DNA from: a virus
Virus record (IMG/VR): IMGVR_UViG_3300025570_000007
Length of the DNA: 64,000 nucleotides
Reading direction: 5' to 3' (one strand)
This document shows positions 44,293 to 61,761 of this stretch, one piece after another. Position 1 is the first letter of the stretch. Every line of letters begins with the position of its first letter. A program made the position numbers and the translations under genes. Under the pieces are notes generated by a model, which did no database searches, was not told the DNA's origin, and saw only the letters and a program-made list of their open reading frames with translations.

Positions 44293-45441
44293 TTATTTTA
44301 TAATTCCTGCTAGTTTCTGCATTCTTCTAACAGCGTCTGATGCTTCAGAGATAATCTCTGGTTTTGCAGCAGTAGTTCCGGTGGCTTTTGAAGCTCTACC
44401 TAATTTTGCTTCTTGTATTTTGCGTCCTCTTATAGGCTTAGCAATTACGTTTTTAGAAACAGTTTCGTAAACTAATTTAACTTCTTTTACTGTCTCAGCT
44501 TTATCAAATGCAGTGATAATATTCACTTTTTGAGACTCGTTTAAATTATTTACTTTGAATACCTTATTTACATAAAGTAATTTAGCATTAAGAAGATTAA
44601 CTTCTTGAAGTTGTTTCTTAAGTACGTTAACTGTCTTAACTGCCTCTTTCAAGTCAGCTTTTACTTCTTCCACAGTTTCTTCTTTAGATTCTTCTTGTTC
44701 GTTTCTCATTGCTGATCCGGCTCCGGCTCCTAAGTCCTGTAAAAGTGCTATTGCTTTTGCAGCAATAGGTCCTCCTTTAGCTACTAGAGCTTTTAATCCG
44801 TCAACGATACTATCAAGTCCAGCTGCAGCTCCTCCGGTTGGTTCTCCACCAAATTGACCTTCGTTTGCTTCGCCTTCTTCCATTGCAGAAAGTTCTCTAA
44901 GAAGTTCGTCTAAATCAATTTCCTCTTCTTCTTCTGCTCCCATCATATCATCAGCAGGCATTTCTTCGCCTGGTAATTCTTCTCCTGGGATTGGTTCTCC
45001 TTCTAGTCCACCTTCGCCAGCCTCTTGGCCAACTATGTCTCTAATAAGGTCTTTTAAATCGTCGATAGTTAAATCTTCAATTTCTAATTCGTCTTCAAGT
45101 TCACCTTCTTCGCCAGCTTCTGCTTCGTCTTCAGATTCTTCTGAATCAACCTCGGCTTCGTCTTCTAGACCTTCTTCTTCCTCTTCGAAAGTAAGTTCTT
45201 CCTCAAGTTGTTTAGTCTGTTCAGTTGTGTCTTTCGTGTTAACGTCTACTTCTCCACCTTGGATTTCATCAACTGTTTCTTCATCAGACTCTTCCATCTC
45301 TTGAAGTTTTGCAGCTAACATGCTTTTTAAATGAGGTGTCAATGTTTCCTCTAAAGCGTCTTTAGCGTTGATTATAGCAGCTTCACGTACAGACTTCGCG
45401 GCAGCAATAGCTTCCTTGAATAGTTCTTTGTTGTTGTGCAT
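44293..45441 (-). CDS. Prohead core scaffold protein (gp22-like)
   Basis: Very acidic coiled coil, EVNLLNAKLLY, RMQKLAGI, directly upstream of the capsid gene. Confidence 0.85.
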   Translation of the reverse strand: MHNNKELFKEAIAAAKSVREAAIINAKDALEETLTPHLKSMLAAKLQEMEESDEETVDEIQGGEVDVNTKDTTEQTKQLEEELTFEEEEEGLEDEAEVDSEESEDEAEAGEEGELEDELEIEDLTIDDLKDLIRDIVGQEAGEGGLEGEPIPGEELPGEEMPADDMMGAEEEEEIDLDELLRELSAMEEGEANEGQFGGEPTGGAAAGLDSIVDGLKALVAKGGPIAAKAIALLQDLGAGAGSAMRNEQEESKEETVEEVKADLKEAVKTVNVLKKQLQEVNLLNAKLLYVNKVFKVNNLNESQKVNIITAFDKAETVKEVKLVYETVSKNVIAKPIRGRKIQEAKLGRASKATGTTAAKPEIISEASDAVRRMQKLAGIIK

Positions 45442-45462
45442 TTAATAAATTTTTGTTGTGTC

Positions 45463-45522
45463 TACGATTATTGGAATCGTAATAGGAAAGTTTTTTATGC
45501 GAATACAGTATAGTGACTGTAT
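45463..45522 (-). promoter_or_regulatory. Two-hairpin 5' leader of the scaffold-capsid operon
   Basis: Stems ATACAGT/ACTGTAT and TACGATT/AATCGTA between the late motif at 45532-45539 and the ATG at 45441. Confidence 0.45.
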
Positions 45523-45557
45523 ATTTGTAATAATAAATAGTGCTAGGTTCCGGAAAC

Positions 45558-45587
45558 AAGAAAACCTACCGTTTCGGGTAGGTTCTT
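45558..45587 (-). terminator. Intrinsic terminator
   Basis: Sense AACCTACC-CGAAAC-GGTAGGTT-TTCTT. Confidence 0.8.
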
Positions 45588-45610
45588 ATGGTGTGTTATG
45601 TTTTTACTAT

Positions 45611-46237
45611 TTACTTCTGAAAGATTAATACATCTTCGCTGTCAAAGAAAAGAACTGATGTTTTAAATCCGCTTTCATCGTTTGGAGTATACCCTACTTC
45701 TGTAGGATCTAGTGTATAGTTTATAGCAAAACCATCTTCGATTTCTTTTGCGTTTTCAGGATCTGTTAATATCTGTTGTCTTTGACTTTCTAGATATTTT
45801 AAAAGTTCTTTAGGGTCTCTATTATCTTTTACCTCAACATTACCAGGAGATCCGTAATCTGTTTCAGTGCGTACAGGTCTGTTAAGATCTATCCCTACTT
45901 TCTTGAAGAGATCAGCTACTGATATATCTTTTCCGCTTATGTAGTTAGAGGTCTCCTCTTTTTCGTTTTCTTTAATTCCCTGGAGGTAATCTCTAACGAT
46001 TGAGTCGATTTCGTCTGTGTCTTTACTTGAGATTAAAGAGTCCCAAGTATTCCATCCTTGTTGATCTTCATCATCTCCTGTTAAATCATCGTAAACCTGT
46101 CTTAATACCTCTTGTCCGTATTTTTTCTCAATATAGGTTTGTGCGTTAAATTCCTTGATTACTGTGTTAACTCTCTTACTATCGAAAGTTTGTTTATTCT
46201 CTATTAAGAATTTTTTAAGGTCGAAATTGTCTGCCAT
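45611..46237 (-). CDS. Putative internal head protein
   Basis: MADNFDLKKFLIENK, VIKE and GIKE sites, acidic. Confidence 0.6.
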   Translation of the reverse strand: MADNFDLKKFLIENKQTFDSKRVNTVIKEFNAQTYIEKKYGQEVLRQVYDDLTGDDEDQQGWNTWDSLISSKDTDEIDSIVRDYLQGIKENEKEETSNYISGKDISVADLFKKVGIDLNRPVRTETDYGSPGNVEVKDNRDPKELLKYLESQRQQILTDPENAKEIEDGFAINYTLDPTEVGYTPNDESGFKTSVLFFDSEDVLIFQK

Positions 46238-46278
46238 TTTATTATTATTATTATTATTATGCTAAATATATGTGTTTT

Positions 46279-47262
46279 TTATCGTTTTTGCAACTGTTTA
46301 TCTAAGTAATCTTGGTAAGCTTCTGCTTCTTCTGGTCTCATTTCTCTATCTATCTCGATTGAGTCGTAATCAGTTTCGCCATATGATCCTGCAGCTATCC
46401 CTACATAATACTTACCTGTGCTTGTACTTTTTCCGTTCATCTCAACATCATACCCTTCTCTTTCTGATTCATCTTGATCCCAAGGATTATCTGTTCCTCC
46501 GTATGGAAGTACTCCGTCTTCTGTCCACTCTATGTCGTCTGGATGTTCTAATGTATTTTCTTTAACACTTCCTTTACGTTTTGCTAATTCTTTCTTAACA
46601 TCTTGTATATCTTGTTCATTTCCTTCGTACCTTGATAGATTAACAATCATATCAGCTAGTGCATCATTAGAATATCCTTCAAGACCTTCAATAACAATTA
46701 ATTTAATTACATCTTCCTTAAGTACTCTCTCTTTAGGTGTTAATCCTTCAAATAACGATTCATATGCCCATTGATGTAGTTGATCTGCATGCTGATCCTG
46801 TAATCTGTTTAATTGATCATCTGTTAACTCGGTTCCATCTTCAAAATTAGCTGTTGCTATGAAAGTATCGGTAAAATCAGGGTAATCCCTATCATCTACA
46901 CCGTCTAGTTGAACTGTTCCCATGTCTACCTTCTTTCCGTCAATAGTTCCTGCTGGTTCTACTGGTAAGTCTGGAGATATTTGGAATCCTTTAATACTTT
47001 TAACGCTATATGTGATTTCCCCTATTTTATCTTTTAGTAGAGCTAATGCTTCATCTTCGCTACCTGCTTCTACAGTGTATCCATAGTCTACTCCTGGTCT
47101 ACTCTCTACATTTACAACTATCTTATACTGTAAAGGCTCTTCTTTAATGACTCTATGGGTAACTAGCTTATTTTCGTTAGTATTATCCTCTGTTAAAATC
47201 TTTTTACCTTGTTCCTCCTTATAGTTAGTTAGAAACCTGTAATAGTTGAATCTTTCTCCCAT
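46279..47262 (-). CDS. Putative internal head polyprotein
   Basis: Acidic modules separated by ILTE, VIKE, LFE, VLKE, VKE. Confidence 0.6.
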   Translation of the reverse strand: MGERFNYYRFLTNYKEEQGKKILTEDNTNENKLVTHRVIKEEPLQYKIVVNVESRPGVDYGYTVEAGSEDEALALLKDKIGEITYSVKSIKGFQISPDLPVEPAGTIDGKKVDMGTVQLDGVDDRDYPDFTDTFIATANFEDGTELTDDQLNRLQDQHADQLHQWAYESLFEGLTPKERVLKEDVIKLIVIEGLEGYSNDALADMIVNLSRYEGNEQDIQDVKKELAKRKGSVKENTLEHPDDIEWTEDGVLPYGGTDNPWDQDESEREGYDVEMNGKSTSTGKYYVGIAAGSYGETDYDSIEIDREMRPEEAEAYQDYLDKQLQKR

Positions 47263-47840
47263 TATGCTCTTAATATGTCGTTAATTAGATCGTGTGCTTT
47301 ACAGTATCTGGTGCAAGCTTGCTTTCCTTCGTTTAAACTTACTGGATTCATAAATGCTCCATGTGTTGAAGGATTAGATACAAAGTCCCAGCATACTAAC
47401 TCAAAATCAGGCTGTACTTCTAATGTTCCTTCATTTGTTTGTTCTACTGATCCTGTTCCTCTTGATGAAATACCTATTGTATGACCTGCTTTTACAATCT
47501 CCTTTACAATATTTCCTGAAGGTGTATTAAGAAGTTCTATTCTTCCTTTCAGTTCATCACCATCCCACCATAATTCTTTGATTATATGTGATGCATTCTT
47601 TAAAGACACTACTGCTGATTCAGGATGATCTAACTCACCGTAAGCATTCCCGTTCTTTACAAACTCGTCTACATATTTTTGAGCTTCAGTTACTAAAATC
47701 TCTTTTTTATATACTCTCCCGTTCTGGTTTTTAGCTCCAGCTCTTTGTAATACACCTTCTACCTCAAAAACACCAGGTCTTTGCTTAGATTCCCTAAGGA
47801 TAGGTTTAAACGATGTTATATCTACAAGTAATTTTGTCAT
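47262..47840 (-). CDS. Prohead maturation protease (T4 gp21-like)
   Basis: NQNGRVY, GELDHP, NASH, GISSRGTGS, WDFVSNPS. Confidence 0.95.
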   Translation of the reverse strand: MTKLLVDITSFKPILRESKQRPGVFEVEGVLQRAGAKNQNGRVYKKEILVTEAQKYVDEFVKNGNAYGELDHPESAVVSLKNASHIIKELWWDGDELKGRIELLNTPSGNIVKEIVKAGHTIGISSRGTGSVEQTNEGTLEVQPDFELVCWDFVSNPSTHGAFMNPVSLNEGKQACTRYCKAHDLINDILRA

Positions 47841-47846
47841 GTTCTT

Positions 47847-48146
47847 TTAGTTTCCTGTTCTACTCTTTACTCCTTTGTATGCACCAAGTAAGTGACTGGC
47901 TATTGATTTAGCATCCATGTTTGTTAACTGGTCTGCTGATCTTCTGTAATGTTCTGCAAGCTTATATAAAAGTTCCTCCATTTCCTCTGCAGAAAAGTAT
48001 CGAAGTTCGTCCATTATCTGTTCTACACTCTGATTTTTATTATTAGAGCTTTCGTACAGTTTAGCTTTCCAGTTATGTATATCGAAATCTGATTTCATAT
48101 TACTTTTTTCTTTTAGTATATTTTCTTTTTGGAGACTTATTCTCAT
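47847..48146 (-). CDS. Small putative internal head protein (probable start MKSDFDIHNW at 48098)
   Basis: FDIHNWK..LYE N-terminal motif resembles FDLKKFLIE. Confidence 0.55.
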   Translation of the reverse strand: MRISLQKENILKEKSNMKSDFDIHNWKAKLYESSNNKNQSVEQIMDELRYFSAEEMEELLYKLAEHYRRSADQLTNMDAKSIASHLLGAYKGVKSRTGN

Positions 48147-49875
48147 TAACTTCTCCTCCTGCTGGATTCTGTCTTATCATTTCCTGCTGTTCTGGTGATG
48201 CTACTTGTGTCTTAGGTAGCTCTATCGATCTGTATTTCTGAAGGACTGGTTCTAAGTCTTTTTTAAATGCTGCTGATATTGCTGGTGCCATAAATGGACC
48301 TATGTTTGTATATATATTCTCAATATTCTGTCTAGTGTCTAGATAAGTCTTTTCAATCTTAGCGATATGATCTGCTAAATCTGTAGCTCCTTTACGTATA
48401 CGTGCTGCTAGGTCTTCGTTATCACTATTTTCATAGTTGATATACCTTTCTAAATTTTCTGCTCTAGCTTCTTTAAGAAGTTTTCTGTCTTCTGTAAGAA
48501 TACCTGTGATCATTTTCTTAAAGGTTTCTTTAAGTTGTTCTCTTACTTTATTTTCTTCATATACACCGAAAGCATCTTCCTCTGATCGTTCTGCTGCTCT
48601 ATCTGATGCATTTCTATCTTGGGATGCTCTTATTTTAGCGTTCTTTAAAGAAAGTCCTTTTGCTACGTATCTCTTAACTAATGCGTCAAATGATTTTGAA
48701 GCTTCTTCTATATTATCAGTACCTTCTTCAACACTCTCTTCTACTTCCTGTAAATTACTTGCAAGATAGTCTACTAAATCTTTCTTAGCGTGTGGAATCA
48801 TTCCTGGCTCTGTCATAGGACCGTCTTTCCATTCATCCCATACTGCAAGTAAGTGTTTGATAGCTTTTTCTAATCTTGGACCCATAGACTCTACGTATCC
48901 TCCATTTCCATAATCATCTTCTTTTACTATCTTACCTCCTTTAATTTTTCTTGCTCTACCTTCTTCTAGAGATTTTGCACTATTTAAAGCTTTAAGTATT
49001 ATCTCTTTCTTTGATAATTGATCAGATGATAATGTTTCCTCTCCTAAATCAAAAAGTCCTTTAGCTTTCATTTTCTTAACCCAAGCTTGTCTACTCTTTC
49101 TATGTTCTTCTCTTCCAGCTGGTGATAGTTTTTTATGGTGATTAAGTCCATCTACCTTTCCTTGATACTGGTTAGTAGCTTTAGGGTAGCTTGGATGTTT
49201 CATTTCTTTAAAATTAGTCTTCTTCTTATCCATTACCATTTTTGCTATACTTAGACTACGTCCCCAAAGACTTGTTGGATTAGCATCTATATAGTCCTGT
49301 ATTTCATCAGCGGTTAAATCATCCCACTTTGGATGCTCACTCATGGAGTTCTTATCTCCTTTCTCAAAAGCCGGAGTTCCATGAGGTGAAAATTCACTTA
49401 TTTTACCTTTTTTAGATTCCTTTAGTGTAGCTTTCTTAAGTCCGTTATAAGTATCAACAGTATTTTTTGCTGTTGCTGGTGTCATTTGGTCATGTTTATC
49501 TACTTTCTTAGAATCTCCTGACATTAAATGCAAGTAGAAGTTACAGTCTTTAGCTAAGTTTTTCATAACTTTAGCTTTGGCTTTTTCATAGTCACTCTTT
49601 TGTACAGTTCCTACTGTATCGATACCCATTTTTTCTAACTCCACGTCAACACCTCTCTGAATTGATTCTAATGAGTAGTTCTTTTCAAGATCTGCTGCTG
49701 GTGTTTTTTTAGCCTCTACAATCACACCTTTATTCTTAAGAATCTGTACAGTGTCTTTGTATCCGTTAAAAGGACTAATGTAGTTAGGTAGCTGTAGTTT
49801 AGCATCTCTAACAAATTGTGTTTTAGAGAAGTTATTCTCTAATATTGCGTTATATTTTTCCTGTAGTGTCTTCAT
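48100..49875 (-). CDS. Putative internal head/core polyprotein
   Basis: MKTLQEKYNAILE, more than 10 [ILVF]xE sites. Confidence 0.6.
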   Translation of the reverse strand: MKTLQEKYNAILENNFSKTQFVRDAKLQLPNYISPFNGYKDTVQILKNKGVIVEAKKTPAADLEKNYSLESIQRGVDVELEKMGIDTVGTVQKSDYEKAKAKVMKNLAKDCNFYLHLMSGDSKKVDKHDQMTPATAKNTVDTYNGLKKATLKESKKGKISEFSPHGTPAFEKGDKNSMSEHPKWDDLTADEIQDYIDANPTSLWGRSLSIAKMVMDKKKTNFKEMKHPSYPKATNQYQGKVDGLNHHKKLSPAGREEHRKSRQAWVKKMKAKGLFDLGEETLSSDQLSKKEIILKALNSAKSLEEGRARKIKGGKIVKEDDYGNGGYVESMGPRLEKAIKHLLAVWDEWKDGPMTEPGMIPHAKKDLVDYLASNLQEVEESVEEGTDNIEEASKSFDALVKRYVAKGLSLKNAKIRASQDRNASDRAAERSEEDAFGVYEENKVREQLKETFKKMITGILTEDRKLLKEARAENLERYINYENSDNEDLAARIRKGATDLADHIAKIEKTYLDTRQNIENIYTNIGPFMAPAISAAFKKDLEPVLQKYRSIELPKTQVASPEQQEMIRQNPAGGEVNENKSPKRKYTKRKK

Positions 49876-50050
49876 CTAAGTAATCGAACATTTTAGTATT
49901 ATGTGGTCTTTTTTTTCCTTTAACTTTCTTAAAAGCTTTTGGAGATCCTGTTTGTGCTCCTGATCCTGGTGTAAATGAAGCTCCACCCCCTGTGGTGTTC
50001 ATCTCCTTTATTACACTTTGAACAAAATTTGTTAATTCACTTCTCTTCAT
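49850..50050 (-). CDS. Small putative core protein
   Basis: MKRSELTNFVQSVIKE, then MNTTGG...PKAFKK. Confidence 0.6.
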   Translation of the reverse strand: MKRSELTNFVQSVIKEMNTTGGGASFTPGSGAQTGSPKAFKKVKGKKRPHNTKMFDYLDEDTTGKI

Positions 50051-50901
50051 TACTTCTTTAATTCTTGGACCAGCTCGTAATATTGCATTATATTTACAAG
50101 ATGATCGTCAGTTACTCTTTTTGTTTTAGGTACCGGTATAATTGTCTTAACTACTTCCTGTAGTTTAATTCCAATAATTTCATCTTCAACGTCATTACCT
50201 ACCTCTATTATAGCTACTCTAAGTTTACTTAGCTCTTCATTTACTATATTTCTCAACCTAGTTGAGGAATCTACTGATGTTATAAATTCTCTCAGTATAT
50301 TTTTTTGCTCTGGTAAAAGAGATTTGTACCTTTTATTAAACTTCTCTAAAAGTATCTTAAAGGTCAGTAGTTTTAAATCTTTATCGTATTTAGAATATTC
50401 TTCTATTAACGTATCTTTTACATCATCCTTATCCTGTTCTGCATTTGTAAGATGTTCCAGTAAGGTTGTCTTATTATCAATAAGTACCTCTGGATCGACA
50501 ACATCTGTGGCTTTATGGGCTTCTAGTAAACAGTATAATGCTGCTAGTGGTTTATAGTCTGGTACTTTTATTGAAAAGAATTCCTCTACGTCGTAACTTT
50601 CTTTAATTTCCTTAATAAGACTGTATTTCTGTTTCTTAAGGGTATCTGAATTAACCGTTCTAGATATTTCTATGATGGTTGATACGATAGATTCTGCCTT
50701 ATTTTGAGATACTGCTCTATTCTTAAGGATGAACTCATACAACTTAAATTCACGCACTAACGCTGTCTTACCTGTATAGAAGTTTTTTAATATCTTCACA
50801 GCAGGGGAATCTTGATTATTTAAAGTATCGGCAGCAATTTGTTTTACTAGCAACTCAAATATCAGTCCCGTATTTTTATACTTACTATGTTTTATGCGCA
50901 T
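50050..50901 (-). CDS. Prohead core/head morphogenesis protein
   Basis: KHSKYKNTGLIFELL, directly downstream of the portal gene. Confidence 0.6.
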   Translation of the reverse strand: MRIKHSKYKNTGLIFELLVKQIAADTLNNQDSPAVKILKNFYTGKTALVREFKLYEFILKNRAVSQNKAESIVSTIIEISRTVNSDTLKKQKYSLIKEIKESYDVEEFFSIKVPDYKPLAALYCLLEAHKATDVVDPEVLIDNKTTLLEHLTNAEQDKDDVKDTLIEEYSKYDKDLKLLTFKILLEKFNKRYKSLLPEQKNILREFITSVDSSTRLRNIVNEELSKLRVAIIEVGNDVEDEIIGIKLQEVVKTIIPVPKTKRVTDDHLVNIMQYYELVQELKK

Positions 50902-50954
50902 TATTGTTTAGTTTTTCGTGTATAAGTATACCGCTCTACTTATATAAATAGTAT

Positions 50955-52895
50955 TTAATTATCTAAATCTATAATTAGGTCTTCGTTCAGTAGCTCGTCC
51001 TTCTCTTCTATAGGTTCTTCAAAGATAAGTTTTTTCTTTTCTGTGAACATTTCTTTGTTCTGTAAAAAAACTTGCTTTGCAATAGTTCCTACTCTAGCTG
51101 GTGATTTACTACTTTCTTGAACGTTTTCATTATCTGAGGGGTATCCTCCTTTCATACCGTGTCGTCCTAATGGATCTCTTCCTCCCATTCCGTCGTTTGT
51201 TCCGTAATGTGATGCATGTGTTCTTGGTGCTCCACCTTCTGGTCCAGGTTCCCCTACTTGATGAGGTCCTGTTGGGTTTGGATGATCTTCATACCCTGCT
51301 GGTACTTCTCCGAAAGAGACTCCCTTATCTCCTTCAAAAGCTCTTCTACCGTATAGTGTTGCTAGATCGTGAGGTGTTCCGTATGATTTTCCTGATTTAG
51401 ATGGATCGTTACCTTCGTTCTCTATTTGAGCTAATCTAAATAATCGTTTGTGATCTTCAGCAATTAGGTCTCTCATCTCTATGTATTGATCCTCTGATAA
51501 GTTAAATATATTGTCGTAGATAAAGTCAGTTGAGAATAATTTAGAGTCTCTCATTTGATTTGCTAAATCGACTTTTTCTTTCAGTAATGCTACCTTCTCT
51601 TGTTCAAAGATAATTGAAGGATTTGTAAGTTTAATTTCGAAGTTAGTTAGAGCTGCTCCTTTAAACCCTTGTGCGTATAAATGTACTAGTGCTATCTTGG
51701 TTAACTCTGATTCTAATATTCTCTGTACTCTCTCTACAGTGTGAGCAAACCTAACATCTTCTGCTGCTATAGTAGCTTTACCCGATAAGTCTTCTTCATA
51801 TCCGAAATAAGCTTTTGGTATTTTAAGTGCTGCGAATAGTTTAGCTCTGAGGTATTCTATATCGTTTGTACCGTCGTATTGTAGACCTGGTGTAGTTTCA
51901 ATTCTTGTTGATTGATCTCCTCCTCTTATTGGAAGGTAAAAATCTTCCATCATGTTCATCATGTTGAAACGTAAGTTGTAATCCCCTGTCTGTGGATCAA
52001 CGTACGGTGTTTTCTTCATGGTATTAATAGTCTTCTGCATGAACTGCTCTACCTCTTGAGGTGGAATCTGTCCTACGTTAACATAGAAGGTTCTCTTCTC
52101 AGGAGCTCTCATTATACGATGTATTAGCATCGCATCTTCCATTAAGGTTAGCTGTTTATATATCTTTCTACCTGGTTCTATGTAAGCTCGTCCGTACGGT
52201 AAGTAACTTGTATCTGCTATTAACCTAAAGTGAGCTACTTCGTAATTATCAAACTCTAATATTTTTGAATTGTCTCTGCGATGTACTGTAGGATCTTGTG
52301 ATGCTGCAATTCCGTCAGGGTCTAACTGGAATGTTACCTTGGTTGGGTTTTCAGGGTCAAGACCTTCTGTCCTTGTCATATGGTACACCGTATAAGGTAG
52401 TACGTTAAATACTCCAAACTCTTCTGCAATCTCTAATTTTAAGAAAAAGTCACCGTATTTACACATATTCCTTGTCCAAGACCATAGGTTAAATTCTATG
52501 TTAAGTACGTCGTAAAATAGATTGTAAAGTACTCTCTGCAGGTTTTCATCAGAAGATTTAATAGAGAGTACTTCTCCCATATCATTCTTTAGAGTCGCTT
52601 CATCCGCTATAATATCTAATGCTGACATTATAATTGCATCTGAGTCCATTGCTTCATAATCTGCGTATAGTTGGATACGGAGTGTTTGGTAATTTAAATT
52701 AGGGTTAAATATATTTTTATTGTTGTAAATATATAATCTCGAGAACCTGTCAACAAGTGAGTTTGTCTGGTATTTCCCTGTTTTCTGTATTTGATTTACA
52801 TCAACTACTTTTAACTGGTCGCCGCCAACATTTCTTATTACTACATCAGAAGAAAACAATCTTCCTAGTCTCTTAAATAGTGAAGTATCTGCCAT
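50955..52895 (-). CDS. Portal protein (T4 gp20-like)
   Basis: LMEDAMLIHRIMRAPEKR.F, EDFYLPIRG, IETTPG, ALKIPK. Confidence 0.95.
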   Translation of the reverse strand: MADTSLFKRLGRLFSSDVVIRNVGGDQLKVVDVNQIQKTGKYQTNSLVDRFSRLYIYNNKNIFNPNLNYQTLRIQLYADYEAMDSDAIIMSALDIIADEATLKNDMGEVLSIKSSDENLQRVLYNLFYDVLNIEFNLWSWTRNMCKYGDFFLKLEIAEEFGVFNVLPYTVYHMTRTEGLDPENPTKVTFQLDPDGIAASQDPTVHRRDNSKILEFDNYEVAHFRLIADTSYLPYGRAYIEPGRKIYKQLTLMEDAMLIHRIMRAPEKRTFYVNVGQIPPQEVEQFMQKTINTMKKTPYVDPQTGDYNLRFNMMNMMEDFYLPIRGGDQSTRIETTPGLQYDGTNDIEYLRAKLFAALKIPKAYFGYEEDLSGKATIAAEDVRFAHTVERVQRILESELTKIALVHLYAQGFKGAALTNFEIKLTNPSIIFEQEKVALLKEKVDLANQMRDSKLFSTDFIYDNIFNLSEDQYIEMRDLIAEDHKRLFRLAQIENEGNDPSKSGKSYGTPHDLATLYGRRAFEGDKGVSFGEVPAGYEDHPNPTGPHQVGEPGPEGGAPRTHASHYGTNDGMGGRDPLGRHGMKGGYPSDNENVQESSKSPARVGTIAKQVFLQNKEMFTEKKKLIFEEPIEEKDELLNEDLIIDLDN

Positions 52896-52909
52896 TAATA
52901 TGGTTTAGT

Positions 52910-52917
52910 TATAAATA
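52910..52917 (-). promoter_or_regulatory. Late promoter motif TATTTATA (representative copy, portal gene; about 20 copies in the window)
   Basis: The same motif sits mostly 10-45 nt upstream of structural gene starts. Positions are listed in the findings. Confidence 0.75.
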
Positions 52918-52921
52918 TGTG

Positions 52922-54496
52922 TTATTTAAAGATCCATGAGATATCCTCGCTCCCATGAGTCGTTTGAATAATATAAGGATTATTTTGCTGGCTGCCAACG
53001 GAAGATATGATTGCTTTGTTGTTGGCATTTAAATTTGTGAAAGATGATAACTGTGCTCTAGACAGGTCTAACCCTTGTTGACGGAGTCTTAATGCAGTAT
53101 CACGTACATACAGGGCTGTTGCAAAGGCCATCAATAAGTCATCGTTATAATTCGTCTGTGCTTGTGCTTTACCGTTCTTCCATACAAATACTCTCATTTC
53201 TCCGAGTAGTCGTTTTGACTGTATTGTTACACTTTTTTCACGTACGTACTCCATCATTTTAGCAATCACTAATGGACGGGTTCTCATCGACATTGTAAAG
53301 CCCGGTACTAGTTGATCTCTTTCGTACTTTATCATATACGATTCAACTGTGTCTAACTGGTTCTTAGGACTGTAGTATAGATTCTTGTATTCCCGTTCAA
53401 GTACCTGTTCGATTGTAGACCATCCTATATTTGCATTCTCTATGACAAGTAGTGCATCATTATAATCAGATGCTACACCTACTAGTATGTTTCCTAACTG
53501 TTTCGGGGATACCTTGCCTTTATATTCCCCTACTTGTACACAAGCTTCTATGTCAAAAATATGGAATCCTGAGTAATCTTTAGAGTCCCCTCTTGATACA
53601 TCTGCTACAACCATATACGATTTTGTATAGTCTGGCTGTTCCCATATCCATAAGTTATGGTCTACTCCTCTTTTCTCTACTGGGTCTGTTTGGTAGGTTT
53701 GTTCGTAGAAAGACAGGTCTTCCGGTTCAAATACAGTATCACCCGAAGCTAAGAAATCACAGTCACATTCCTGTGCTGCCATCCTTTCCCCAAGGTCCCT
53801 GTCTTGTAAGTCTCTCCACTCTTGACTTCTTTCAGGATGTACCGTCCAAGGTAGCCTAACCGGTAAAAATGAATTTTCACCTGTTTCTGCTTTTTCCCAT
53901 GTTAAGTGAAACCAGTTACCAATTCCGTTAGGAGTTGATAGTGCCATACACTGTCCCCCTGTAGCTAACGTTTGTTGTGCAGCTGCAAATGTTTCGTCAA
54001 TGTTGTCAATAAAGGCTGCTTCATCGAGAATTAACAGTGATACCGCTTCTGAACGAGCAGCATCTGAGTTAGATGATTTGGCTTGTATTTTAGATCCGTT
54101 TTTAAGTCTAAGTGATAATTTGTTCTTCTCAACGTGAGACAGCTTTAACCATTTAGGTAGTTGGTCGTACATGAAAATCACTTTTGATACAAGGTTTCTT
54201 GCTGTTGCTTGTGTAGTTGCTAAGGCTAGTACGTTTTTATCTTTATGGAATATCATCAACCATAAACTGTAAGCAGCTGATAGTGTTGAGATACCTAGCT
54301 GTCTTGACTTAAGTGTTATGATGTATTGATGATCCTTAAATAAGTGGAGTACTTCACTTTGAAAAGGGTATAGGTTGAATAGGATTCTACCTCTCTGTGG
54401 ATGTTGTATATAACAATACTTCCTCATAAAGTAGGCAGGGTCCTTTGCACACTTGATATACTCTTGTGCAACTATCTGTTTTATGTTTTGTGCCAT
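52922..54496 (-). CDS. terL: Terminase large subunit (T4 gp17-like)
   Basis: LYPFQ, KSRQLGIST, ILDEAAF, STPNG, DVSRG, NDDLLMA. Confidence 0.95.
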   Translation of the reverse strand: MAQNIKQIVAQEYIKCAKDPAYFMRKYCYIQHPQRGRILFNLYPFQSEVLHLFKDHQYIITLKSRQLGISTLSAAYSLWLMIFHKDKNVLALATTQATARNLVSKVIFMYDQLPKWLKLSHVEKNKLSLRLKNGSKIQAKSSNSDAARSEAVSLLILDEAAFIDNIDETFAAAQQTLATGGQCMALSTPNGIGNWFHLTWEKAETGENSFLPVRLPWTVHPERSQEWRDLQDRDLGERMAAQECDCDFLASGDTVFEPEDLSFYEQTYQTDPVEKRGVDHNLWIWEQPDYTKSYMVVADVSRGDSKDYSGFHIFDIEACVQVGEYKGKVSPKQLGNILVGVASDYNDALLVIENANIGWSTIEQVLEREYKNLYYSPKNQLDTVESYMIKYERDQLVPGFTMSMRTRPLVIAKMMEYVREKSVTIQSKRLLGEMRVFVWKNGKAQAQTNYNDDLLMAFATALYVRDTALRLRQQGLDLSRAQLSSFTNLNANNKAIISSVGSQQNNPYIIQTTHGSEDISWIFK

Positions 54497-54555
54497 TTAT
54501 TATCTATAATGTATTATATAAATAGCTACGGTGTATGGAAAGATATTTCTATTTT

Positions 54556-55182
54556 CTATAAAGGCTCGTCTCCTTTTTCAAAATCTACATCTTCACCGCT
54601 AAGGTCTTCAGGTTCTCCAGCTTCATCTCCTAATGGTACATCTTCTGCAGGAGGTGTTTCGTCAAATGCATCTTCTCCAGGTGCACCACCTTCTCCACCA
54701 GGAAATTCTCCACCACCACCACCTCCGGCTGCAAATGGATCATCTGCTCCTCCTTCTTCTTCTGCTCCTTGAATTGGTGCTGTTTTATAAAGTATGGCTA
54801 GTTTATCTAGTGCTTGTTGAAATTCGTCTACTGTACCCAGGAAGTACTTTTTTCCTTGTATAGTTGCTTGGAAGTTTTTTCCTGACCATTTTAGTGTAAA
54901 GTCCTGATCGTTCTGAAGATTAATTCTAAATTCTGTAGGTCGGGGTGATACCCAGTCTATTGTTTTTACAAACTCTTTATAGTCTTTAGTCATTAACTTA
55001 GTTAACGACTTCTTAAGGGTTGGAAATTTTTCAAGCATAGTATCTGTAGCATCCGGTAATACGGCTTCCGTACTTGCTGTTTCGTCTCCTTTTGGGTCTT
55101 CTGGTTGTGGCTCTTCATCTTGTTCTAATAGAACTTCAATATAAGCTTCTTCCATTAATTTTATAAGGTCTCTTTTTTTCAT
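54556..55182 (-). CDS. Acidic, Gly-rich putative head protein
   Basis: MKKRDLIKLMEEAYIEVLLE; low-complexity acidic tail. Confidence 0.6.
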   Translation of the reverse strand: MKKRDLIKLMEEAYIEVLLEQDEEPQPEDPKGDETASTEAVLPDATDTMLEKFPTLKKSLTKLMTKDYKEFVKTIDWVSPRPTEFRINLQNDQDFTLKWSGKNFQATIQGKKYFLGTVDEFQQALDKLAILYKTAPIQGAEEEGGADDPFAAGGGGGGEFPGGEGGAPGEDAFDETPPAEDVPLGDEAGEPEDLSGEDVDFEKGDEPL

Positions 55183-55188
55183 CTTTTA

Positions 55189-56706
55189 TTAAATTAATCC
55201 GCTTAAATCTAATGATATTCCTATAGCTTTTGCAGCTTTAACTAGGATAGGTTTCATCTGCTTTCTCTTCTCCTTGCTACCGTTTTTATAGATTTCTAGC
55301 ATTCTAATGTACTTCTGTCTTGGAGTTTCCTCGTCTTCGTTCTCATACATATCTTTACCGTACTCAACTTCTCTATCTGCTCTCTCTAAATCTTCCCAAG
55401 GTTCAAATGTATCTTTTGAATCATCTTTAGGAGCATCTTTATCAGTTTTATTAGCTTTTGCTTCTCTCACGTAACTTGTTAGAATCCTCTTAGCATCGTC
55501 AATAGCATTCTCTAATTCAGTATCGTCTAACTCGCTCCAGTACTGCCTATCGTCTCCGTCTAAGTACTGTCCTGATACTTTCTCCCATTCATTTTCTATC
55601 TCTCCTCCTATATCCCATATTTTACCTTCTAGTTTACCTATCTGTTCAACATACGGATTTACAACTCTGTCTGTATTTCCTGAGCCTTGCATTGGTCCGA
55701 ATTCTTTTATAGACTTTTTAATATGAGATGATCGGTAATGGTCTTTTAGGTATTCTATTATCTCTTCTGCTGCATCAGATTCACTTACACCGTCCTCAGA
55801 TGCTCTACTCTTTATAATGTTTACAATATCATCTCCATCTCCTCTACCTTCACTAACATCTTCTGTTTCGTTTAAAGCTTGAAAATGCTTTACCATATTG
55901 TTCTTTATAACGTCTCTATGTACTATTGCTTCTCCTGAAGGTTTTACACCTACTTCTCCTATCTCTTTGTCGAAGGAAAAATCTGCTAAATGTAGCGTAT
56001 CTTGGTCGATATGAAAAGCAAAATCATCTTCAAAATCATTCTTATACTTTATAAATATTTCAAATGAATTAGGCTCTACATGATGTATCTTAGCACTATC
56101 GATTTCTTCACCAACTTCTCTTAAGGCAGTCGCTAACGCTTTTCCTACCTCTCTTGCAATTGCCTGGGTCTCTTCTACACTAAACTCTATTCCTCGTTCT
56201 TCTTTAATCTCTTCTCCATCTGCTGTCTTAATACTCTCTACATCAGAATTATCTTTTAACTTATCTAATTCTTTCTTATCTGTATATTCAGCTGGTTGAC
56301 CGTTTATAAAAGCTGTTTTTTCTCCTTCTTTTATTGTAGACTTCTCTAGAAGAGCCTTAATATCACTGTATTTTTTCATTTTTGATTCTTTAATCATAAT
56401 GTACCTATTATCTTCTGTTTTTTCTGCTTCTCCGTTGGAAATAAAACTGTTCCATACTCTCTCTGCATCTTTTGTCATTGCTTGATCTGAGTATAATCCT
56501 TTTGTTAGTTTGTCGTTTGCTGCTCTGTAGAGTTCTTTTCCTATTCCTACTCCTCTATAGTCTTTAGATACTGTAACAGAGTCAACTTGGTAAGAATCTT
56601 TAAAAGGCTTTAACCTCAGTGCTCCTACTTTCTTATCGCCTACTACCGCAATAACTACCTTCTTTCCGTTAGCTTTTATAAAACGAAAGTCTATAGTTTC
56701 TTCCAC
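55189..56706 (-). CDS. Putative internal head polyprotein with N-terminal GNAT acetyltransferase domain
   Basis: VTVSKDYRGVGIGKELY acetyl-CoA motif, then modules split by IKE/LLE/LNE/VRE. GTG start. Confidence 0.7.
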   Translation of the reverse strand: MEETIDFRFIKANGKKVVIAVVGDKKVGALRLKPFKDSYQVDSVTVSKDYRGVGIGKELYRAANDKLTKGLYSDQAMTKDAERVWNSFISNGEAEKTEDNRYIMIKESKMKKYSDIKALLEKSTIKEGEKTAFINGQPAEYTDKKELDKLKDNSDVESIKTADGEEIKEERGIEFSVEETQAIAREVGKALATALREVGEEIDSAKIHHVEPNSFEIFIKYKNDFEDDFAFHIDQDTLHLADFSFDKEIGEVGVKPSGEAIVHRDVIKNNMVKHFQALNETEDVSEGRGDGDDIVNIIKSRASEDGVSESDAAEEIIEYLKDHYRSSHIKKSIKEFGPMQGSGNTDRVVNPYVEQIGKLEGKIWDIGGEIENEWEKVSGQYLDGDDRQYWSELDDTELENAIDDAKRILTSYVREAKANKTDKDAPKDDSKDTFEPWEDLERADREVEYGKDMYENEDEETPRQKYIRMLEIYKNGSKEKRKQMKPILVKAAKAIGISLDLSGLI

Positions 56707-56707
56707 C

Positions 56708-57169
56708 TTATTCTGGCTTTTTATTCCCTACAATTTCTTTATAGTCCTGCATAGTAAGAATCTCATCATGTGTACTTCCTAACCTTATTGCTCTTTCTGC
56801 TACATCGTGAAGATCCATATCTGATTTAGCGTCTTCTTTTGCGTATTCTAATAACCGTATAAATAGTGGAATATCTAATGTTACCTTATCAGCAGGATTT
56901 TCAGATTCCCCTACGAAGTTTAACTCTTCTTCAGTTTCTGCAGCTGCTACTAGGTCCATTAGGTGCCTGTCTTGAAGCAATTCGGTGTTTAGTGCCGTAA
57001 ATGCGTTCATAAAATCATCTCCTCGTCCTACATGTGCTATATAATCTCGACCATCCTCGTAGGTATTCTCTAAATACTTTGTTAGTGATTCAAGTGCGTC
57101 CATATCATACCCCAGGTAGTATGTATTGTCTTCGGTAAAAGCTTCTACAATTAGCTTACTTAGCTTCAT
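56708..57169 (-). CDS. Putative internal head protein
   Basis: MKLSKLIVE; DIPLFIRLLEYAKED module. Confidence 0.6.
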   Translation of the reverse strand: MKLSKLIVEAFTEDNTYYLGYDMDALESLTKYLENTYEDGRDYIAHVGRGDDFMNAFTALNTELLQDRHLMDLVAAAETEEELNFVGESENPADKVTLDIPLFIRLLEYAKEDAKSDMDLHDVAERAIRLGSTHDEILTMQDYKEIVGNKKPE

Positions 57170-57199
57170 ATTAATGTATTTTTATATAAATAGCGGTGA

Positions 57200-57775
57200 T
57201 TACTTGAAATGTTGCTTTAGGTGAGTAGTGTATTCCTTAATTCCGTCCATTATCTTCTTTTTCTCGTTTGAATTAGAATTCCAATCCTCAATATCGCCCT
57301 GTTCTGTAACAAAGGTAGATTTTGCATTCACTAAGTCTAGTGCCCAAGCTTCTATATCATTAGCAAATGCGCTCATATTTCCTTGCATCATTCTCTCCTC
57401 ATATTGCTTATATAGCCCTGCTTTTCTTAACTTAGCTTCATATCCAATAGTGCAATCAAAACAGAATCCATGTATCTTATACATTTTTTTTGCTAAATGA
57501 TGCTTCATCGAACCTTTACACTTCGGACATGTTAGCGGAATACGTAAAGCTTTTTTTGCTGCATCTAGTTTAGTAATATTCTGCTTTAATCCGTTTTTTA
57601 TTGTCCACTGTTTTCCGCCTTCTTCCCAAAAATCTCCTTCTTTATGTCTTTCTGAACTTCTTTTGTATCCTGTTTGAGATTTTGTAGCTGCAGTAAAGTC
57701 TTTATTGACTATATTACGTACTCTTTCTATATCGGATTTCTTAAATTCTTTCTTTAGTAACGATTCTTTACTCAT
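57200..57775 (-). CDS. Zinc-ribbon hypothetical protein
   Basis: CPKC...CFDC. Confidence 0.7.
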   Translation of the reverse strand: MSKESLLKKEFKKSDIERVRNIVNKDFTAATKSQTGYKRSSERHKEGDFWEEGGKQWTIKNGLKQNITKLDAAKKALRIPLTCPKCKGSMKHHLAKKMYKIHGFCFDCTIGYEAKLRKAGLYKQYEERMMQGNMSAFANDIEAWALDLVNAKSTFVTEQGDIEDWNSNSNEKKKIMDGIKEYTTHLKQHFK

Positions 57776-57920
57776 TATTCAACTTTATTTTATATTCATG
57801 ATAAGCTTCAGCAAATTTTAACATCACTTTCCACTTCCTTCCAGCACTTCTTCCTCCTGTGTATATCTCTCTAGGTTGTTTTGCTGACCAGTTACGGTAG
57901 TATTCTTCAACTTCACTCAT
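57768..57920 (-). CDS. Small hypothetical protein (50 aa); missing from the ORF track
   Basis: MSEVEEYYRNW...KFAEAYHEYKIKLNNE*, fills the gap and overlaps both neighbours. Confidence 0.5.
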   Translation of the reverse strand: MSEVEEYYRNWSAKQPREIYTGGRSAGRKWKVMLKFAEAYHEYKIKLNNE

Positions 57921-58458
57921 ATCCTAGTGCTATTAATGTTTGTATTACTTCGTCTGAATCACCGTCTTTGCATCGTATTGCTATACCTCCTGCTTCTTGC
58001 CATTCTTTAATGTTAGACTTCTTATCGTCTATTAGGATTGCATTGGGAGATGCGTATCTCTGCTTGTCTTCCGAGTATGCGAATATAACCTTAGGTGGCG
58101 GTACTATATTATCCCTAACCCAGAGATTCTTACCTAACCTAGATGTGTCGTCTCTAGAAGGAGATGTTAATAAGTCCGGTGTATATTGTGCTAAGAATGA
58201 CCACAGTTTCTTACCTTGTGGCATCCAATTCATTTTTTGCCAAAACTGTATACCTATCTCTTGATCTATTAACTTCCAGAAAATAGGGTCTCCGTAATCC
58301 TCTAAAAATTCATCAGGAGTTTTTCCTGTGAAGTGTTCGAAACGTCCTTTAAAATCTGTCAATACCCCGTCCATGTCACAGTAGATCTTATACGGCGGTA
58401 TTTCTTTAATAGGGTATGCTTCTAATAAATCTACTAATTGTCCCATAACCATTTCCAA
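57913..58458 (-). CDS. HAD-family 5'(3')-deoxyribonucleotidase-like phosphatase
   Basis: DMDGVLTDF, LTSP, K, ILIDD. Confidence 0.88.
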   Translation of the reverse strand: MEMVMGQLVDLLEAYPIKEIPPYKIYCDMDGVLTDFKGRFEHFTGKTPDEFLEDYGDPIFWKLIDQEIGIQFWQKMNWMPQGKKLWSFLAQYTPDLLTSPSRDDTSRLGKNLWVRDNIVPPPKVIFAYSEDKQRYASPNAILIDDKKSNIKEWQEAGGIAIRCKDGDSDEVIQTLIALGYE

Positions 58459-58790
58459 TTTTCTTCTTCTTGTGATGCTTTCTTCTCGTACGGATGATCC
58501 GTATAGGAAAGTCCCATATTTGAATACCTAACATACCAGGTAGGTGACTGGAGGTAGTGTTGGTATTCATGTATTATTGTTCTAGCTAAATCCTCTTTTG
58601 ATTCTATGTTATTACAGTATATTGTGATTTCATTACCTGTAAAGCAATACTGTCCTTTAGCTGTATCTCCTTCATAGGCTAGTTCATACTCTAAGTAAGG
58701 AGTGCATGGTTGAAATTTAGAGTATCCGTAAAAGTTACATACTTCAGTAATATACTCTTTAGCTAATCTCCTTACAGTTCTTTTATCCAT
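58434..58790 (-). CDS. HExxH zinc metallopeptidase-like protein
   Basis: TIIHEYQH...HPYEKKA. Confidence 0.75.
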   Translation of the reverse strand: MDKRTVRRLAKEYITEVCNFYGYSKFQPCTPYLEYELAYEGDTAKGQYCFTGNEITIYCNNIESKEDLARTIIHEYQHYLQSPTWYVRYSNMGLSYTDHPYEKKASQEEENWKWLWDN

Positions 58791-61706: not shown

Positions 61707-61731
61707 TCTATAACCTTTTTTAATTAATCAT

Positions 61732-61761
61732 AAAGATAAGAAACAATCTTTAAGTCTACAA
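61732..61761 (-). promoter_or_regulatory. Host-type promoter for the nucleotidyltransferase operon
   Basis: Sense TTG-N20-TATCTTTA. Confidence 0.7.

Follow-up and report, generated by a model that had tools for sequence, protein, structure and literature searches.

Leader-tagged proteins around the head genes of a Far-T4 myophage, probably packaged into the capsid and processed there

Around the protease, portal and terminase genes of the phage studied here lies a run of genes whose products open with short leaders ending in a hydrophobic-x-Glu motif, which raises the question of whether these proteins are loaded into the head and cut there by the head protease. The window, i.e., the whole 64,000-nt stretch of DNA analyzed, corresponds to a "Far-T4" myophage head module, and its source is a marine Flavobacterium-type relative of phage T4. 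The closest cultured relative is Flavobacterium phage immuto, which grows on Flavobacterium sp. LMO8 (72% identity in the capsid protein), and our comparisons covered the window, the whole immuto genome and 80 related metagenomic loci. A sequence-only reading of the region 45611-57169 had proposed a set of acidic polyproteins made of swappable effector domains, which are packaged, released by a gp21-like protease and injected. We found its observations partly confirmed and its interpretation partly supported: the region would represent the prohead-core and internal-protein set of a Bacteroidota Far-T4 myophage, an explanation that we consider fairly probable when taken as a whole.

All features described below lie on the minus strand. 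The proposed gp21-like protease (47262-47840) was recovered as a prohead protease of the Peptidase S77 (T4 gp21) family (PF03420, 5e-33; PHROG 207, 1e-51). It matches the T4 gp21 structure 5jbl (1.9e-21), with His and Ser present here and Ala in the 5jbl chain; judged from its sequence, this T4-type protease is intact. Its own N-terminal site, PILRE17 followed by S, is kept in 36/36 homologues. The gp23-type major capsid protein (42657-44264; PF07068, 1.7e-79) has a propeptide in which an alignment of 35 distinct N-termini revealed four invariant hydrophobic-x-Glu sites (LLE8, LLE34, xLE50 and IV(S/A)E59), all preceding the mature domain. Directly upstream of the capsid gene, like T4 gp22, lies the gene for a probable scaffolding protein (44293-45441; 382 aa, 19% Glu, 15 sites), whose site density is accounted for by composition and which has no sequence similarity to T4 gp22. 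Two context genes, those for the gp20-type portal protein (50955-52895; immuto homologue annotated as gp20-like) and the large terminase TerL (52922-54496; 75% identical to the immuto gene at the nucleotide level), code for no leader with the motif Glu at residues 8-22. A late-promoter-like motif, TATTTATA (24 matches versus 11.4 expected), occurs upstream of the tagged block (57185-57192, before the 153-aa gene), TerL (54517-54524), the portal gene (52910-52917), the 283-aa gene and many tail genes, such that this putative promoter motif is common to the tagged genes and the head genes.

A leader was scored when an [ILVM]xE motif had its Glu between residues 8 and 22. By this measure, a leader is present in 10/14 head-block genes of the window versus 18/56 others (Fisher p = 0.013), in 15/18 head genes versus 49/199 others across the immuto genome (p = 1e-6), and in 82% of 259 distinct variable head-region N-termini from the 80 related loci, where ORFs lying past the capsid gene give 42% and 20-aa windows from protein interiors 33%/22%; as the families are kin to one another, these counts represent non-independent events. 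The leaders of head-region genes are, as proposed, real, and they exceed chance in the window, the immuto genome and the 80 loci. The four head-block genes lacking one are those for the portal, TerL, a GNAT fusion (where the tag is internal) and a 327-aa protein (where it has decayed). The tag usually conforms to M-K/N-x-x-x-L/I-x-x-h-h-x-E, is helical and spans 9-20 residues. Selection on the site is indicated by its retention in every distinct N-terminus, 36/36 for the 591-aa family and 43/43 for the 66-aa one; where the site is missing at residue 13, another is found at 14-21. All eight leaders quoted in the sequence-only reading are encoded on the minus strand where it placed them, though two are doubtful as tags: for MKLVDIIAE (36876), an alignment-free scan of the immuto ORFs showed no motif at residues 8-22, and for MKLTKLIIKE (63511), comparative support is almost nil.

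Three of the tagged families are conserved. The 283-aa protein (50050-50901), encoded 3' of the portal gene, is richer in [ILV]xE than any other protein of the window (18 sites, 64 per 1000, z 4.8 against composition-matched shuffles), with T4 gp68 and gp22 at 43 and 78 sites per 1000, respectively. The family is found in 69 loci, and its 34 distinct N-terminal variants are all 284 aa long but for one of 287. Pfam, PHROG and Atlas offered no lead for it; it is a probable prohead core protein and occupies the position of T4 gp67/gp68. The 66-aa basic protein (49850-50050; pI 9.9) has the leader MKRSELTNFVQSVIKE, followed by M, and after the predicted cut starts with GGASFTPGSG, resembling the start of the mature capsid protein. 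The third, a 591-aa basic all-alpha protein (48100-49875; pI 9.1; leader MKTLQEKYNAILE, followed by N), comprises two conserved modules, an N-terminal one up to LKE153 and a C-terminal one from about residue 447, on either side of a variable middle; its homologues in 78 loci range from 291 to 978 aa and likewise share their ends and differ in between. In AF2 models, 9/20 of its sites are in linkers with a pLDDT below 50. The model has high confidence for the leader helix as well as for the two helices after it; hence, the leader may not be a free tag in this protein.

The remaining tagged proteins vary among relatives. A 153-aa acidic protein (56708-57169; pI 4.4; leader MKLSKLIVE, followed by A) opens the tagged block upstream of TerL; its homologues occur within a 707-aa fusion and at the start of a 262-aa protein. 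The adjacent 505-aa mosaic protein (55189-56706) begins with a truncated GNAT (residues 1 to ~78 by Pfam match; fold Z 7.5 over 1-75), the sole enzyme domain seen and one that occurs in this phage only. This is followed by IKE107, the internal leader-like MKKYSDIKALLE (ATG at 56379), IKE127 with a small beta unit after it, IKE169 and LNE280, which bound the main folded alpha/beta module (170-280), then helical modules, and finally MYE455 with a C-terminal helical hairpin (458-501). A 208-aa acidic protein (54556-55182; pI 4.1; leader MKKRDLIKLMEEAYIEVLLE, followed by Q) combines a conserved core (KFPTLK...) with a Gly/Asp/Glu-rich tail. About 10 relatives encode it separately, and about 25 as the C-terminal portion of fusions of 295-841 aa; nearly all the fusions shown have hydrophobic-x-Glu at the junction, in most cases with an acidic spacer after it. 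The leader MKSDFDIHNWKAKLYE, followed by S, starts at an internal ATG at 48098, one base past the stop of the 591-aa gene; since the immuto homologue starts at the same place, the true gene is 47847-48098 (83 aa). In immuto, this leader type heads another body, which corresponds to residues 325-375 of the 591-aa protein here. The 327-aa acidic protein (46279-47262) retains a decayed NFDL-type leader, RFNYYRFLTNYK, with the next site at residue 25 (ILTE25) and another at VIKE41. Its two modules occur in reversed order in relatives: 46-189 and 239-322 correspond to residues 134-272 and 25-109, respectively, of NFDL-tagged 273-275-aa proteins. Finally, another 208-aa acidic protein (45611-46237) has a two-part leader, MADNFDLKKFLIE then NKQTFDSKRVNTVIKE, followed by F.

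These comparisons support the view that the N-terminal leaders are a portable tag. The NFDL leader (NFDLKKFLxENK) heads, among 31 proteins, at least 14 unrelated body clusters that show no detectable similarity, with further copies elsewhere in the immuto genome, and different bodies follow the FDIHNW tag in this phage and in immuto. Some genes that stand alone in the window occur in relatives as fusions with hydrophobic-x-Glu retained at the junction, and a general junction test gave 57% versus 38% in the null. Comparison across more than 80 relatives likewise supports the motif as a putative marker of junctions between fused, split or reordered modules. That the modules are effector domains found no support: among 88 representative variable proteins, Pfam found essentially no domain, leaving the truncated GNAT as the sole enzyme.

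Not every site behaves as a junction. An excess of [ILV]xE over shuffles was seen in the 591-aa (z 3.3), 66-aa (z 3.0) and 283-aa proteins and not in the 505-aa (z 0.9), 327-aa (z -0.2) or 208-aa proteins; thus, of the three long proteins singled out as strings of modules, only the 591-aa one exceeds its composition. In the 591-aa protein, the Glu is more conserved at sites than elsewhere (0.70 versus 0.36, p = 0.006), with a second comparison giving 0.49 versus 0.28 (p = 0.07); VRE415, VRE446, IIE318 and IKE335 are among many listed internal sites without conservation in homologues. Across 47 mosaic homologues of the 505-aa protein, conservation reaches at least 90% at E107, E127, E169 and E280, which lie beside variable linkers. 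The best-supported HSP borders of this protein fall at 167-170, 280-282 and 457-458, and when weighted by support, borders match sites in 76% versus 16% (p = 0.0014); unweighted, the matches (4/16, 3/9 and 1/6) are not above chance. The AF2 models put linkers at the conserved sites 169 and 455 of the 505-aa protein and at site 153 of the 591-aa protein, and site 280 precedes a linker by three residues; several other sites fall within the confidently folded 172-283 domain, among which 179 is conserved. The picture of strings of 30-100-aa modules is thus not supported, since the sites found at domain borders are just a conserved subset and others are inside a folded domain.

The nearest known parallel is the set of internal proteins of T4 (IPI, IPII, IPIII and Alt; PMC9026906, PMC8442874, PMC3012670), which bear the targeting sequence MKTYQEFIAE and are processed by gp21 (PMC8442874, PMC9026906). 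Both phages share the S77 protease family, a short N-terminal tag ending in hydrophobic-x-Glu, the placement of that tag on unrelated, fast-changing bodies and the location of some tagged genes off the head module; MKTLQEKYNAILE and the MTYQEIK... of 505-aa homologues even resemble the T4 tag. However, T4 internal proteins reportedly receive a single cut, next to the tag (PMC8442874), whereas the present system has several tag families, one of them two-part, and many multi-module mosaics that repeat the tag motif at internal junctions. T4 gp67, gp68 and gp22 occupy the same positions (between portal and protease, or before the capsid gene), have many gp21-type sites and are presumably degraded during maturation. 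No similarity to the T4 prohead core/scaffold proteins gp68 and gp22 was detectable (hhalign probability 0.1; BLASTP E = 0.14). Unlike the T4 core, the 591-aa family has an insert that varies from 0 to about 700 residues, and gp67 and gp68 are both far shorter than the 283-aa protein. According to excerpts of work on the giant phages phiKZ, 201phi2-1 and SPN3US (PMC5694885, PMC7411985, PMC10052503), a T4-related prohead protease removes many head propeptides after Glu; some head proteins are multiply cut, paralogues share N-terminal propeptides and enzymes are packaged. Those phages are experimentally characterized, and there the motif is A/S/G-x-E with propeptides often exceeding 100 residues, in contrast to the hydrophobic-x-Glu and 9-20-residue tags here; the excerpts make no mention of module shuffling at junction motifs.

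As variable late proteins bear tags ending in the cutting motif of the head protease, they are probably taken into the capsid and trimmed inside it, like the T4 internal proteins; that they would be capsid-targeted and protease-processed is well supported by inference. Late in infection, the tagged proteins would be made alongside the portal, protease and capsid proteins as two groups: a conserved core (the 283-, 66- and 591-aa families plus the acidic scaffold) and a variable accessory set (the 83-, 327-, 505- and 153-aa proteins and the two of 208 aa), all with a short helical tag except the GNAT fusion, where it is internal. The tag may act like the capsid targeting sequence of T4 and dock each protein to the scaffold core during its assembly, and the S77 protease would then cut after the Glu of hydrophobic-x-Glu, removing tags and splitting modules at the conserved subset of junctions. 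Because tag and junction are the same short peptide, modules that move, fuse, split or change order would keep both loading and release, and such freedom of exchange could account for the extreme variability among relatives. This account, an internal-protein set with docking tags and S77 cutting, is the one that we hold to be reasonably likely in its entirety.

A simpler proposal is that the tagged proteins are scaffold or core only, building or sizing the prohead core before being degraded to peptides and expelled ahead of DNA packaging; none would then stay in the head or be injected, and they would not be effectors. It draws on the location of the genes between portal and capsid, where T4 has gp67, gp68 and gp22, on the mostly helical modelled parts with flexible linkers, the strong acidity of most of the proteins, the dearth of enzymes or known domains in the 88 variable representatives, and site densities of the 283- and 591-aa proteins comparable to those of T4 gp68 and gp22. 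Yet essential scaffolds are normally less variable than a system in which one tag heads at least 14 unrelated bodies and gene content near the protease differs in almost every relative. Moreover, immuto also has tagged genes far from its head module, like the T4 internal-protein genes, a scaffold would have no use for a GNAT passenger, and the 111-aa module 170-280 would survive as a unit, its conserved sites (169, 179, 280) being mainly at its edges. We regard this proposal as possible and yet rather unlikely.

That the motif has no proteolytic meaning, merely reflecting helix-rich, Glu/Lys-rich composition and shared leader ancestry, with the fusions left uncut, appears improbable. The motif is indeed frequent in the background (32% of genes outside the head block in the window, and 22-33% of 20-aa windows from protein interiors in related loci), three candidate proteins are no richer in sites than their shuffles, the match of borders to sites is not significant without weighting, and many sites are not conserved. 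Against this stand the enrichment in three separate data sets, the survival of the site through positional shifts in 36/36 N-termini, the four Glu of the 505-aa protein conserved beside variable linkers, and the fourfold invariant motif of the capsid propeptide alongside a T4-family protease of known Glu specificity (PMC5694885). Least credible of all is that the leaders serve membrane or secretion targeting or supply codons for efficient translation: in AT-rich genomes, highly expressed genes often have Lys2 and early codons rich in A and T, and residue 2 is Lys in 99/259 tagged-region ORFs, but the leaders have no hydrophobic stretch or signal-peptide features, and a translation bias would leave unexplained both the conserved Glu with a hydrophobic residue two positions earlier and the keeping of the same peptide at internal junctions.

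The description of these proteins as acidic is accurate for most (pI 4.1-4.9), the basic 591- and 66-aa proteins being the exceptions. The strong acidity of most accessory proteins, unlike the basic internal proteins of T4, argues against long residence beside packed DNA. Together with their place between the portal and capsid genes, it fits a degraded and expelled scaffold or core at least as well as delivered cargo.

All real genes of the window lie on its minus strand, and a tightly packed head module extends from 57169 to 42657. Its genes code, in order, for a 153-aa protein (56708..57169), a 505-aa protein (55189..56706), a 208-aa protein (54556..55182), the large terminase, the portal, and proteins of 283 aa (50050..50901), 66 aa (49850..50050), 591 aa (48100..49875) and 83 aa (47847..48098), followed by a protease, a 327-aa protein (46279..47262), a second 208-aa protein (45611..46237), a Glu-rich 382-aa probable scaffold protein (44293..45441) and the major capsid protein (42657-44264). 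The gp21-like protease that the sequence-only reading had placed at 47262-47840 indeed belongs to the Peptidase_S77 family of T4 gp21 (PF03420, 5e-33; PHROG 207, 1e-51) and aligns with the T4 gp21 structure 5jbl at 1.9e-21. At two positions that are Ala in the crystallized 5jbl chain it has a His (LDHP) and a Ser (ISSRG), which we take to be the catalytic pair. The capsid protein is of the gp23 type (PF07068, 1.7e-79; domain start at residue 78), with propeptide sites of the hydrophobic-x-Glu (h-x-E) form, LLE8, LLE34, xLE50 and IV(S/A)E59, that are invariant across 35 distinct N-termini and are followed by a variable Gly/Thr-rich stretch and then by the conserved mature domain; among T4 proteins, LTE65 is present in gp23 and LRE10 in gp24. 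Among cultured phages, Flavobacterium phage vB_FspM_immuto_2-6A (hereafter immuto) is the closest, its capsid protein being 72% identical, with Microcystis phage Mel-JY01 and Rhodothermus phage RM378 being more distant relatives. Since the 'Far-T4' group has RM378 as its cultured reference (PMC4360716), we place the phage in that group.

The short N-terminal leaders ending in h-x-E that had been quoted from the sequence were all found at their claimed positions. One of them, MKSDFDIHNWKAKLYE, begins at an internal ATG (48098) right after the stop of the 591-aa gene, and an immuto homologue with the identical start point identifies 47847-48098 as its real gene. The leaders are about 10-20 residues long and end in (L/I/V)-x-E, as in T4-type capsid-targeted, gp21-processed proteins, and they include the NFDL, MKL..IILE and MKTLQEKYNAILE types; in T4 itself, replacing the Glu with Asp prevents processing yet leaves targeting intact. 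Counting an [ILVM]xE whose Glu falls within residues 8-22, we found them in 10 of 14 head-block genes of the window against 18 of 56 others (p = 0.013) and, in a genome-wide test run on immuto rather than on the window's own genome, in 15 of 18 against 49 of 199 (p = 1e-6). In 80 IMG/VR loci around homologous proteases, 82% of the 259 distinct N-termini of variable head-region ORFs had one, as compared to 42% for ORFs located past the capsid gene and 22-33% for internal windows of 20 residues. All three sets point the same way; the counts overstate the number of independent events because related families are counted. The four untagged head-block genes are those of the portal, the terminase, an acetyltransferase (GNAT) fusion, i.e., the 505-aa protein, where the tag is internal, and the 327-aa protein, in which a copy of the NFDL tag has decayed and the next site is at residue 25. 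Further copies of the same leader types occur in immuto far from the head module. A site is present in 36 of 36 distinct N-termini of the 591-aa family, in all 43 of the 66-aa family and in all 36 of the protease itself; moreover, members of the 591-aa family that lack the A-[IV]-x-E normally seen at residue 13 have a replacement a few residues on (LNE, ISE, MAE or LAE). This pattern suggests that the h-x-E site is under selection. Most mosaic homologues of the 505-aa protein (P0002-P0120; e.g., L002:346-1635 and L041:514-2691 in related loci) begin with MTYQEIKDRLSKCE, which has TYQE(I/F) in common with the T4 tag MKTYQEFIAE and is free of h-x-E in its first 14 residues.

These leaders are portable. 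The two-part type M-x-NFDLKKFLxENK...LLKE is found on at least 14 body clusters without detectable mutual similarity (31 proteins), and it or a variant is found on three genes flanking the protease (45611, 46279, where it is decayed, and 47847). The sharing of a leader by otherwise unrelated proteins, a mark of T4-type capsid targeting, is thus seen at this locus. The FDIHNW variant precedes the 83-aa body in the window and a different, 75-aa body in immuto, the latter corresponding to residues 325-375 of the window's 591-aa protein. Comparable rearrangements affect whole genes: the 208-aa gene at 54556 stands alone in about 10 relatives and forms the C-terminal part of 295-841-aa proteins in about 25 others, nearly all of which retain the h-x-E at the junction, mostly with an acidic spacer after it. 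This gene is joined in immuto to the body of the 505-aa protein, giving a single 841-aa protein. NFDL-tagged relatives have the two modules of the 327-aa protein in the opposite order. We generalized this to every ORF whose N-terminus aligns within a second ORF: 57% of the 380 junctions (86 of 143 in non-redundant contexts) had a site where the tag was projected to lie, compared to 38% for a random position, with a maximum of 45% in 1000 trials. Three separate overlapping genes at 57200-61761 (a nucleotidyltransferase-like gene and its neighbors) correspond to one 907-aa immuto protein (gp088; 107131-109854), in which about two of the three junctions are near an h-x-E site; this protein has no N-terminal tag, and we did not count the operon as part of the system.

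The proposal that the long proteins are polyproteins cut at internal sites fared unevenly. Site density exceeds that of composition-matched shuffles in the 591-aa (z 3.3), 66-aa (z 3.0) and 283-aa (z 4.8) proteins, but not in the 505-, 327- and 208-aa proteins. The density reaches 64 sites per 1000 residues in the 283-aa protein and 30 in the 591-aa protein, as compared to 43 in T4 gp68 and 78 in T4 gp22. Borders of homologous segments coincided with sites no more often than by chance when unweighted (4 of 16, 3 of 9 and 1 of 6), significance being reached only when each border was weighted by the number of supporting homologues: in the 505-aa protein, 76% versus 16% (p = 0.0014); in the 591-aa protein, 45% versus 14% (p = 0.05). 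The best-supported borders, IKE169 and LNE280, bound a 111-residue module common to about 70 mosaic homologues; the others are MYE455 and, in the 591-aa protein, LKE153 and the sites at 446-450. Glu is better conserved in a site context than elsewhere (0.70 versus 0.36, p = 0.006; 0.49 versus 0.28, p = 0.07). Besides the tag ends, the conserved sites include E153 and E469 in the 591-aa family and E169 and E280 in the 505-aa family. Several sites, including IIE318, IKE335, VRE415 and VRE446, are unconserved and are probably chance matches.

In structural models, the 591-aa protein is predicted to be all-alpha with flexible linkers (mean pLDDT 66), with 9 of its 20 sites falling in the approximately 24% of residues with pLDDT < 50. 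The model of the 505-aa protein (mean pLDDT 67) comprises a GNAT half the usual size (residues 1-78), a long helix bearing an internal leader, a confidently folded alpha/beta domain (172-283) and a C-terminal helical hairpin (458-501). Sites 169 and 455, both conserved, are located in linkers adjoining domains, and the conserved site 280 is three residues ahead of a linker; among the sites that fall within the 172-283 fold, 197, 200 and 251 are unconserved and 179 is conserved (81% in site context).

As to what the modules are, the suggestion that they are swappable enzymes or effectors draws no support from domain content, since Pfam searches with 88 representative variable proteins of the relatives yielded just one DUF and a few coiled-coil-type matches. 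Searches of the candidate proteins themselves against Pfam, PHROGs and the Atlas recovered nothing besides the GNAT, the protease and the capsid protein. Foldseek matched the 591-aa model among viral structures to uncharacterized homologues only, and fold searches with the 505-aa model recovered the GNAT part alone, the 172-283 domain giving weak, unconvincing matches, including helix-grip proteins and a P1 head chain at probability 0.3-0.5. The N-terminal GNAT of the 505-aa protein (residues 1-107) is thus the sole recognizable enzyme among the modules. It preserves the R-G-V-G-I-G motif, yet its Pfam matches cover only profile positions 31-88 of 116 and its fold match (Z 7.5) spans 75 residues, about half of a normal GNAT. 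Among 163 homologues it is confined to this phage's own cluster, and we found no close stand-alone relative. Lacking an N-terminal tag, it lies upstream of IKE107 and the internal tag-like MKKYSDIKALLE, an arrangement suggesting that it may be carried in on the tagged protein and then cut off. The description of the proteins as acidic holds in part: six accessory proteins are acidic or neutral (pI 4.1-6.3), and the 66-aa (pI 9.9) and 591-aa (pI 9.1) proteins are the only basic ones. After its leader, the 66-aa family (49850-50050 in the window) continues as ...E|(A/M)N(V/T)T..GGASFTPGxG, closely resembling the mature capsid start after the last propeptide site, ...E|ANTTGTGG(T/S)FTAGxGEQW (42657-44264). 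The 66-aa protein may imitate the N-terminal arm of the capsid protein or compete for its binding site.

In T4, the capsid targeting sequence MKTYQEFIAE and its removal by gp21 are established, as is the variable repertoire of internal proteins in T4 relatives (PMC8442874, PMC9026906, PMC3012670); processing after Glu by related proteases is established in phiKZ-like phages (PMC5694885). The present locus resembles the T4-type system in its S77 protease with both His and Ser, in a capsid protein of the gp23 type whose N-terminal propeptide ends at an h-x-E site, and in the swapping of leaders between bodies, as seen between the window and immuto. It also recalls T4 gp68 and gp22 in gene position, between portal and capsid genes, and in high protease-site density, but there is no sequence similarity between gp68 and the 591-aa family (hhalign probability 0.1) or between gp22 and the 382-aa protein (BLASTP E = 0.14), and the locus belongs to a clade distinct from that of T4. 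Unlike T4 IPI-III, which are small, highly basic and DNA-associated, the six accessory proteins are not basic; and, unlike T4- and phiKZ-type systems, this locus has several tag families, mostly acidic bodies, and multi-module mosaics with repeated junction motifs. The literature yielded neither an account of Far-T4 mosaic proteins bearing such tags nor a relative's virion proteome, though coverage was limited and this is not proof of absence.

Taken together, the original observation is confirmed in part and its interpretation is partly supported. We consider it probable that this is a T4-style system, in which late proteins would be directed to the prohead core via short portable tags and trimmed by the S77 protease at h-x-E, with the same peptide serving as the joint between shuffled modules. 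A rather unlikely alternative is that the tagged proteins are scaffold components and nothing else: their gene position, acidity and dearth of enzyme domains would fit such a role, whereas their extreme variability, the dispersed tagged genes and a folded module whose conserved sites are mostly near its ends fit it poorly. An origin of the motif in pure chance or composition appears improbable; that the leaders have some other role seems more improbable still. Beyond the T4-style reading of this locus, we tentatively raise the possibility that in Far-T4 phages, and probably the whole T4 superfamily, a single short peptide is at once the tag for loading, the site for the protease and the boundary of the cassette, such that any module flanked by it could recombine into any tagged gene and still be capsid-loaded and released. 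The resulting plug-and-play proteins, including the piggy-backed acetyltransferase, would be delivered with the DNA, most likely for counter-defense.

Were this so, capsid targeting and protease release would not be peculiar to T4 and the giant phiKZ-like phages but a general means of delivery, open to evolution, in a phage clade abundant in marine and fresh waters. Dozens of late proteins now called 'hypothetical' could then be named as capsid cargo by a sequence rule. There would also be a pool of proteins that evolve fast and are first into the host, hence natural counter-defense candidates, and foreign proteins could be loaded into non-coli phages by means of such a tag. As immuto grows on a cultured Flavobacterium, the idea is open to direct testing. 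Several existing annotations among its acidic tagged head-module proteins (NC_055915, 112000-130000) are seemingly spurious: the 'DNA polymerase phi-like protein' is the scaffold, the 'cob(I)alamin adenosyltransferase' a 333-aa protein with an NFDL tag, and the 'tRNA(Ile2) agmatinyltransferase TiaS' a 104-aa tagged protein.

Finally, the motif TATTTATA, with 24 matches against an expectation of 11.4, closely precedes the 153-aa gene (57185-57192), the terminase (54517-54524), the portal (52910-52917), the 283-aa gene (50943-50950) and many tail genes (e.g., 20315, 22790, 24416, 38341, 41855 and 42574). Often extended to CTATTTATA(T/A) and situated 10-30 bases ahead of structural genes, it is probably the late promoter of the clade. 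By its positions, the tagged block upstream of the terminase is probably expressed late, like the head genes, this being a consensus match rather than a mapped promoter. The listed gaps upstream of the 57200-63467 genes have no copy. Neither does the 169-base gap ahead of the scaffold gene (45442-45610), which contains a short inverted repeat (TACGATT..AATCGTA) that could be an RNA element or a terminator separating the accessory genes from those of the scaffold and capsid proteins, which are highly expressed. The capsid gene is followed immediately downstream by a PhoH-like ATPase gene (41867-42553; PHROG 170, 1e-65) with a TATTTATA motif of its own. The window has no counterpart of a conserved 313-400-aa gene that most relatives have just upstream of the terminase region (e.g., L017:3299-4468, L022:3016-4185; immuto 116531-117592), the product of which starts with M-x-(L/I/V)-(I/V)-(D/E)-K-x-(I/Y)-(L/T)-E-W.
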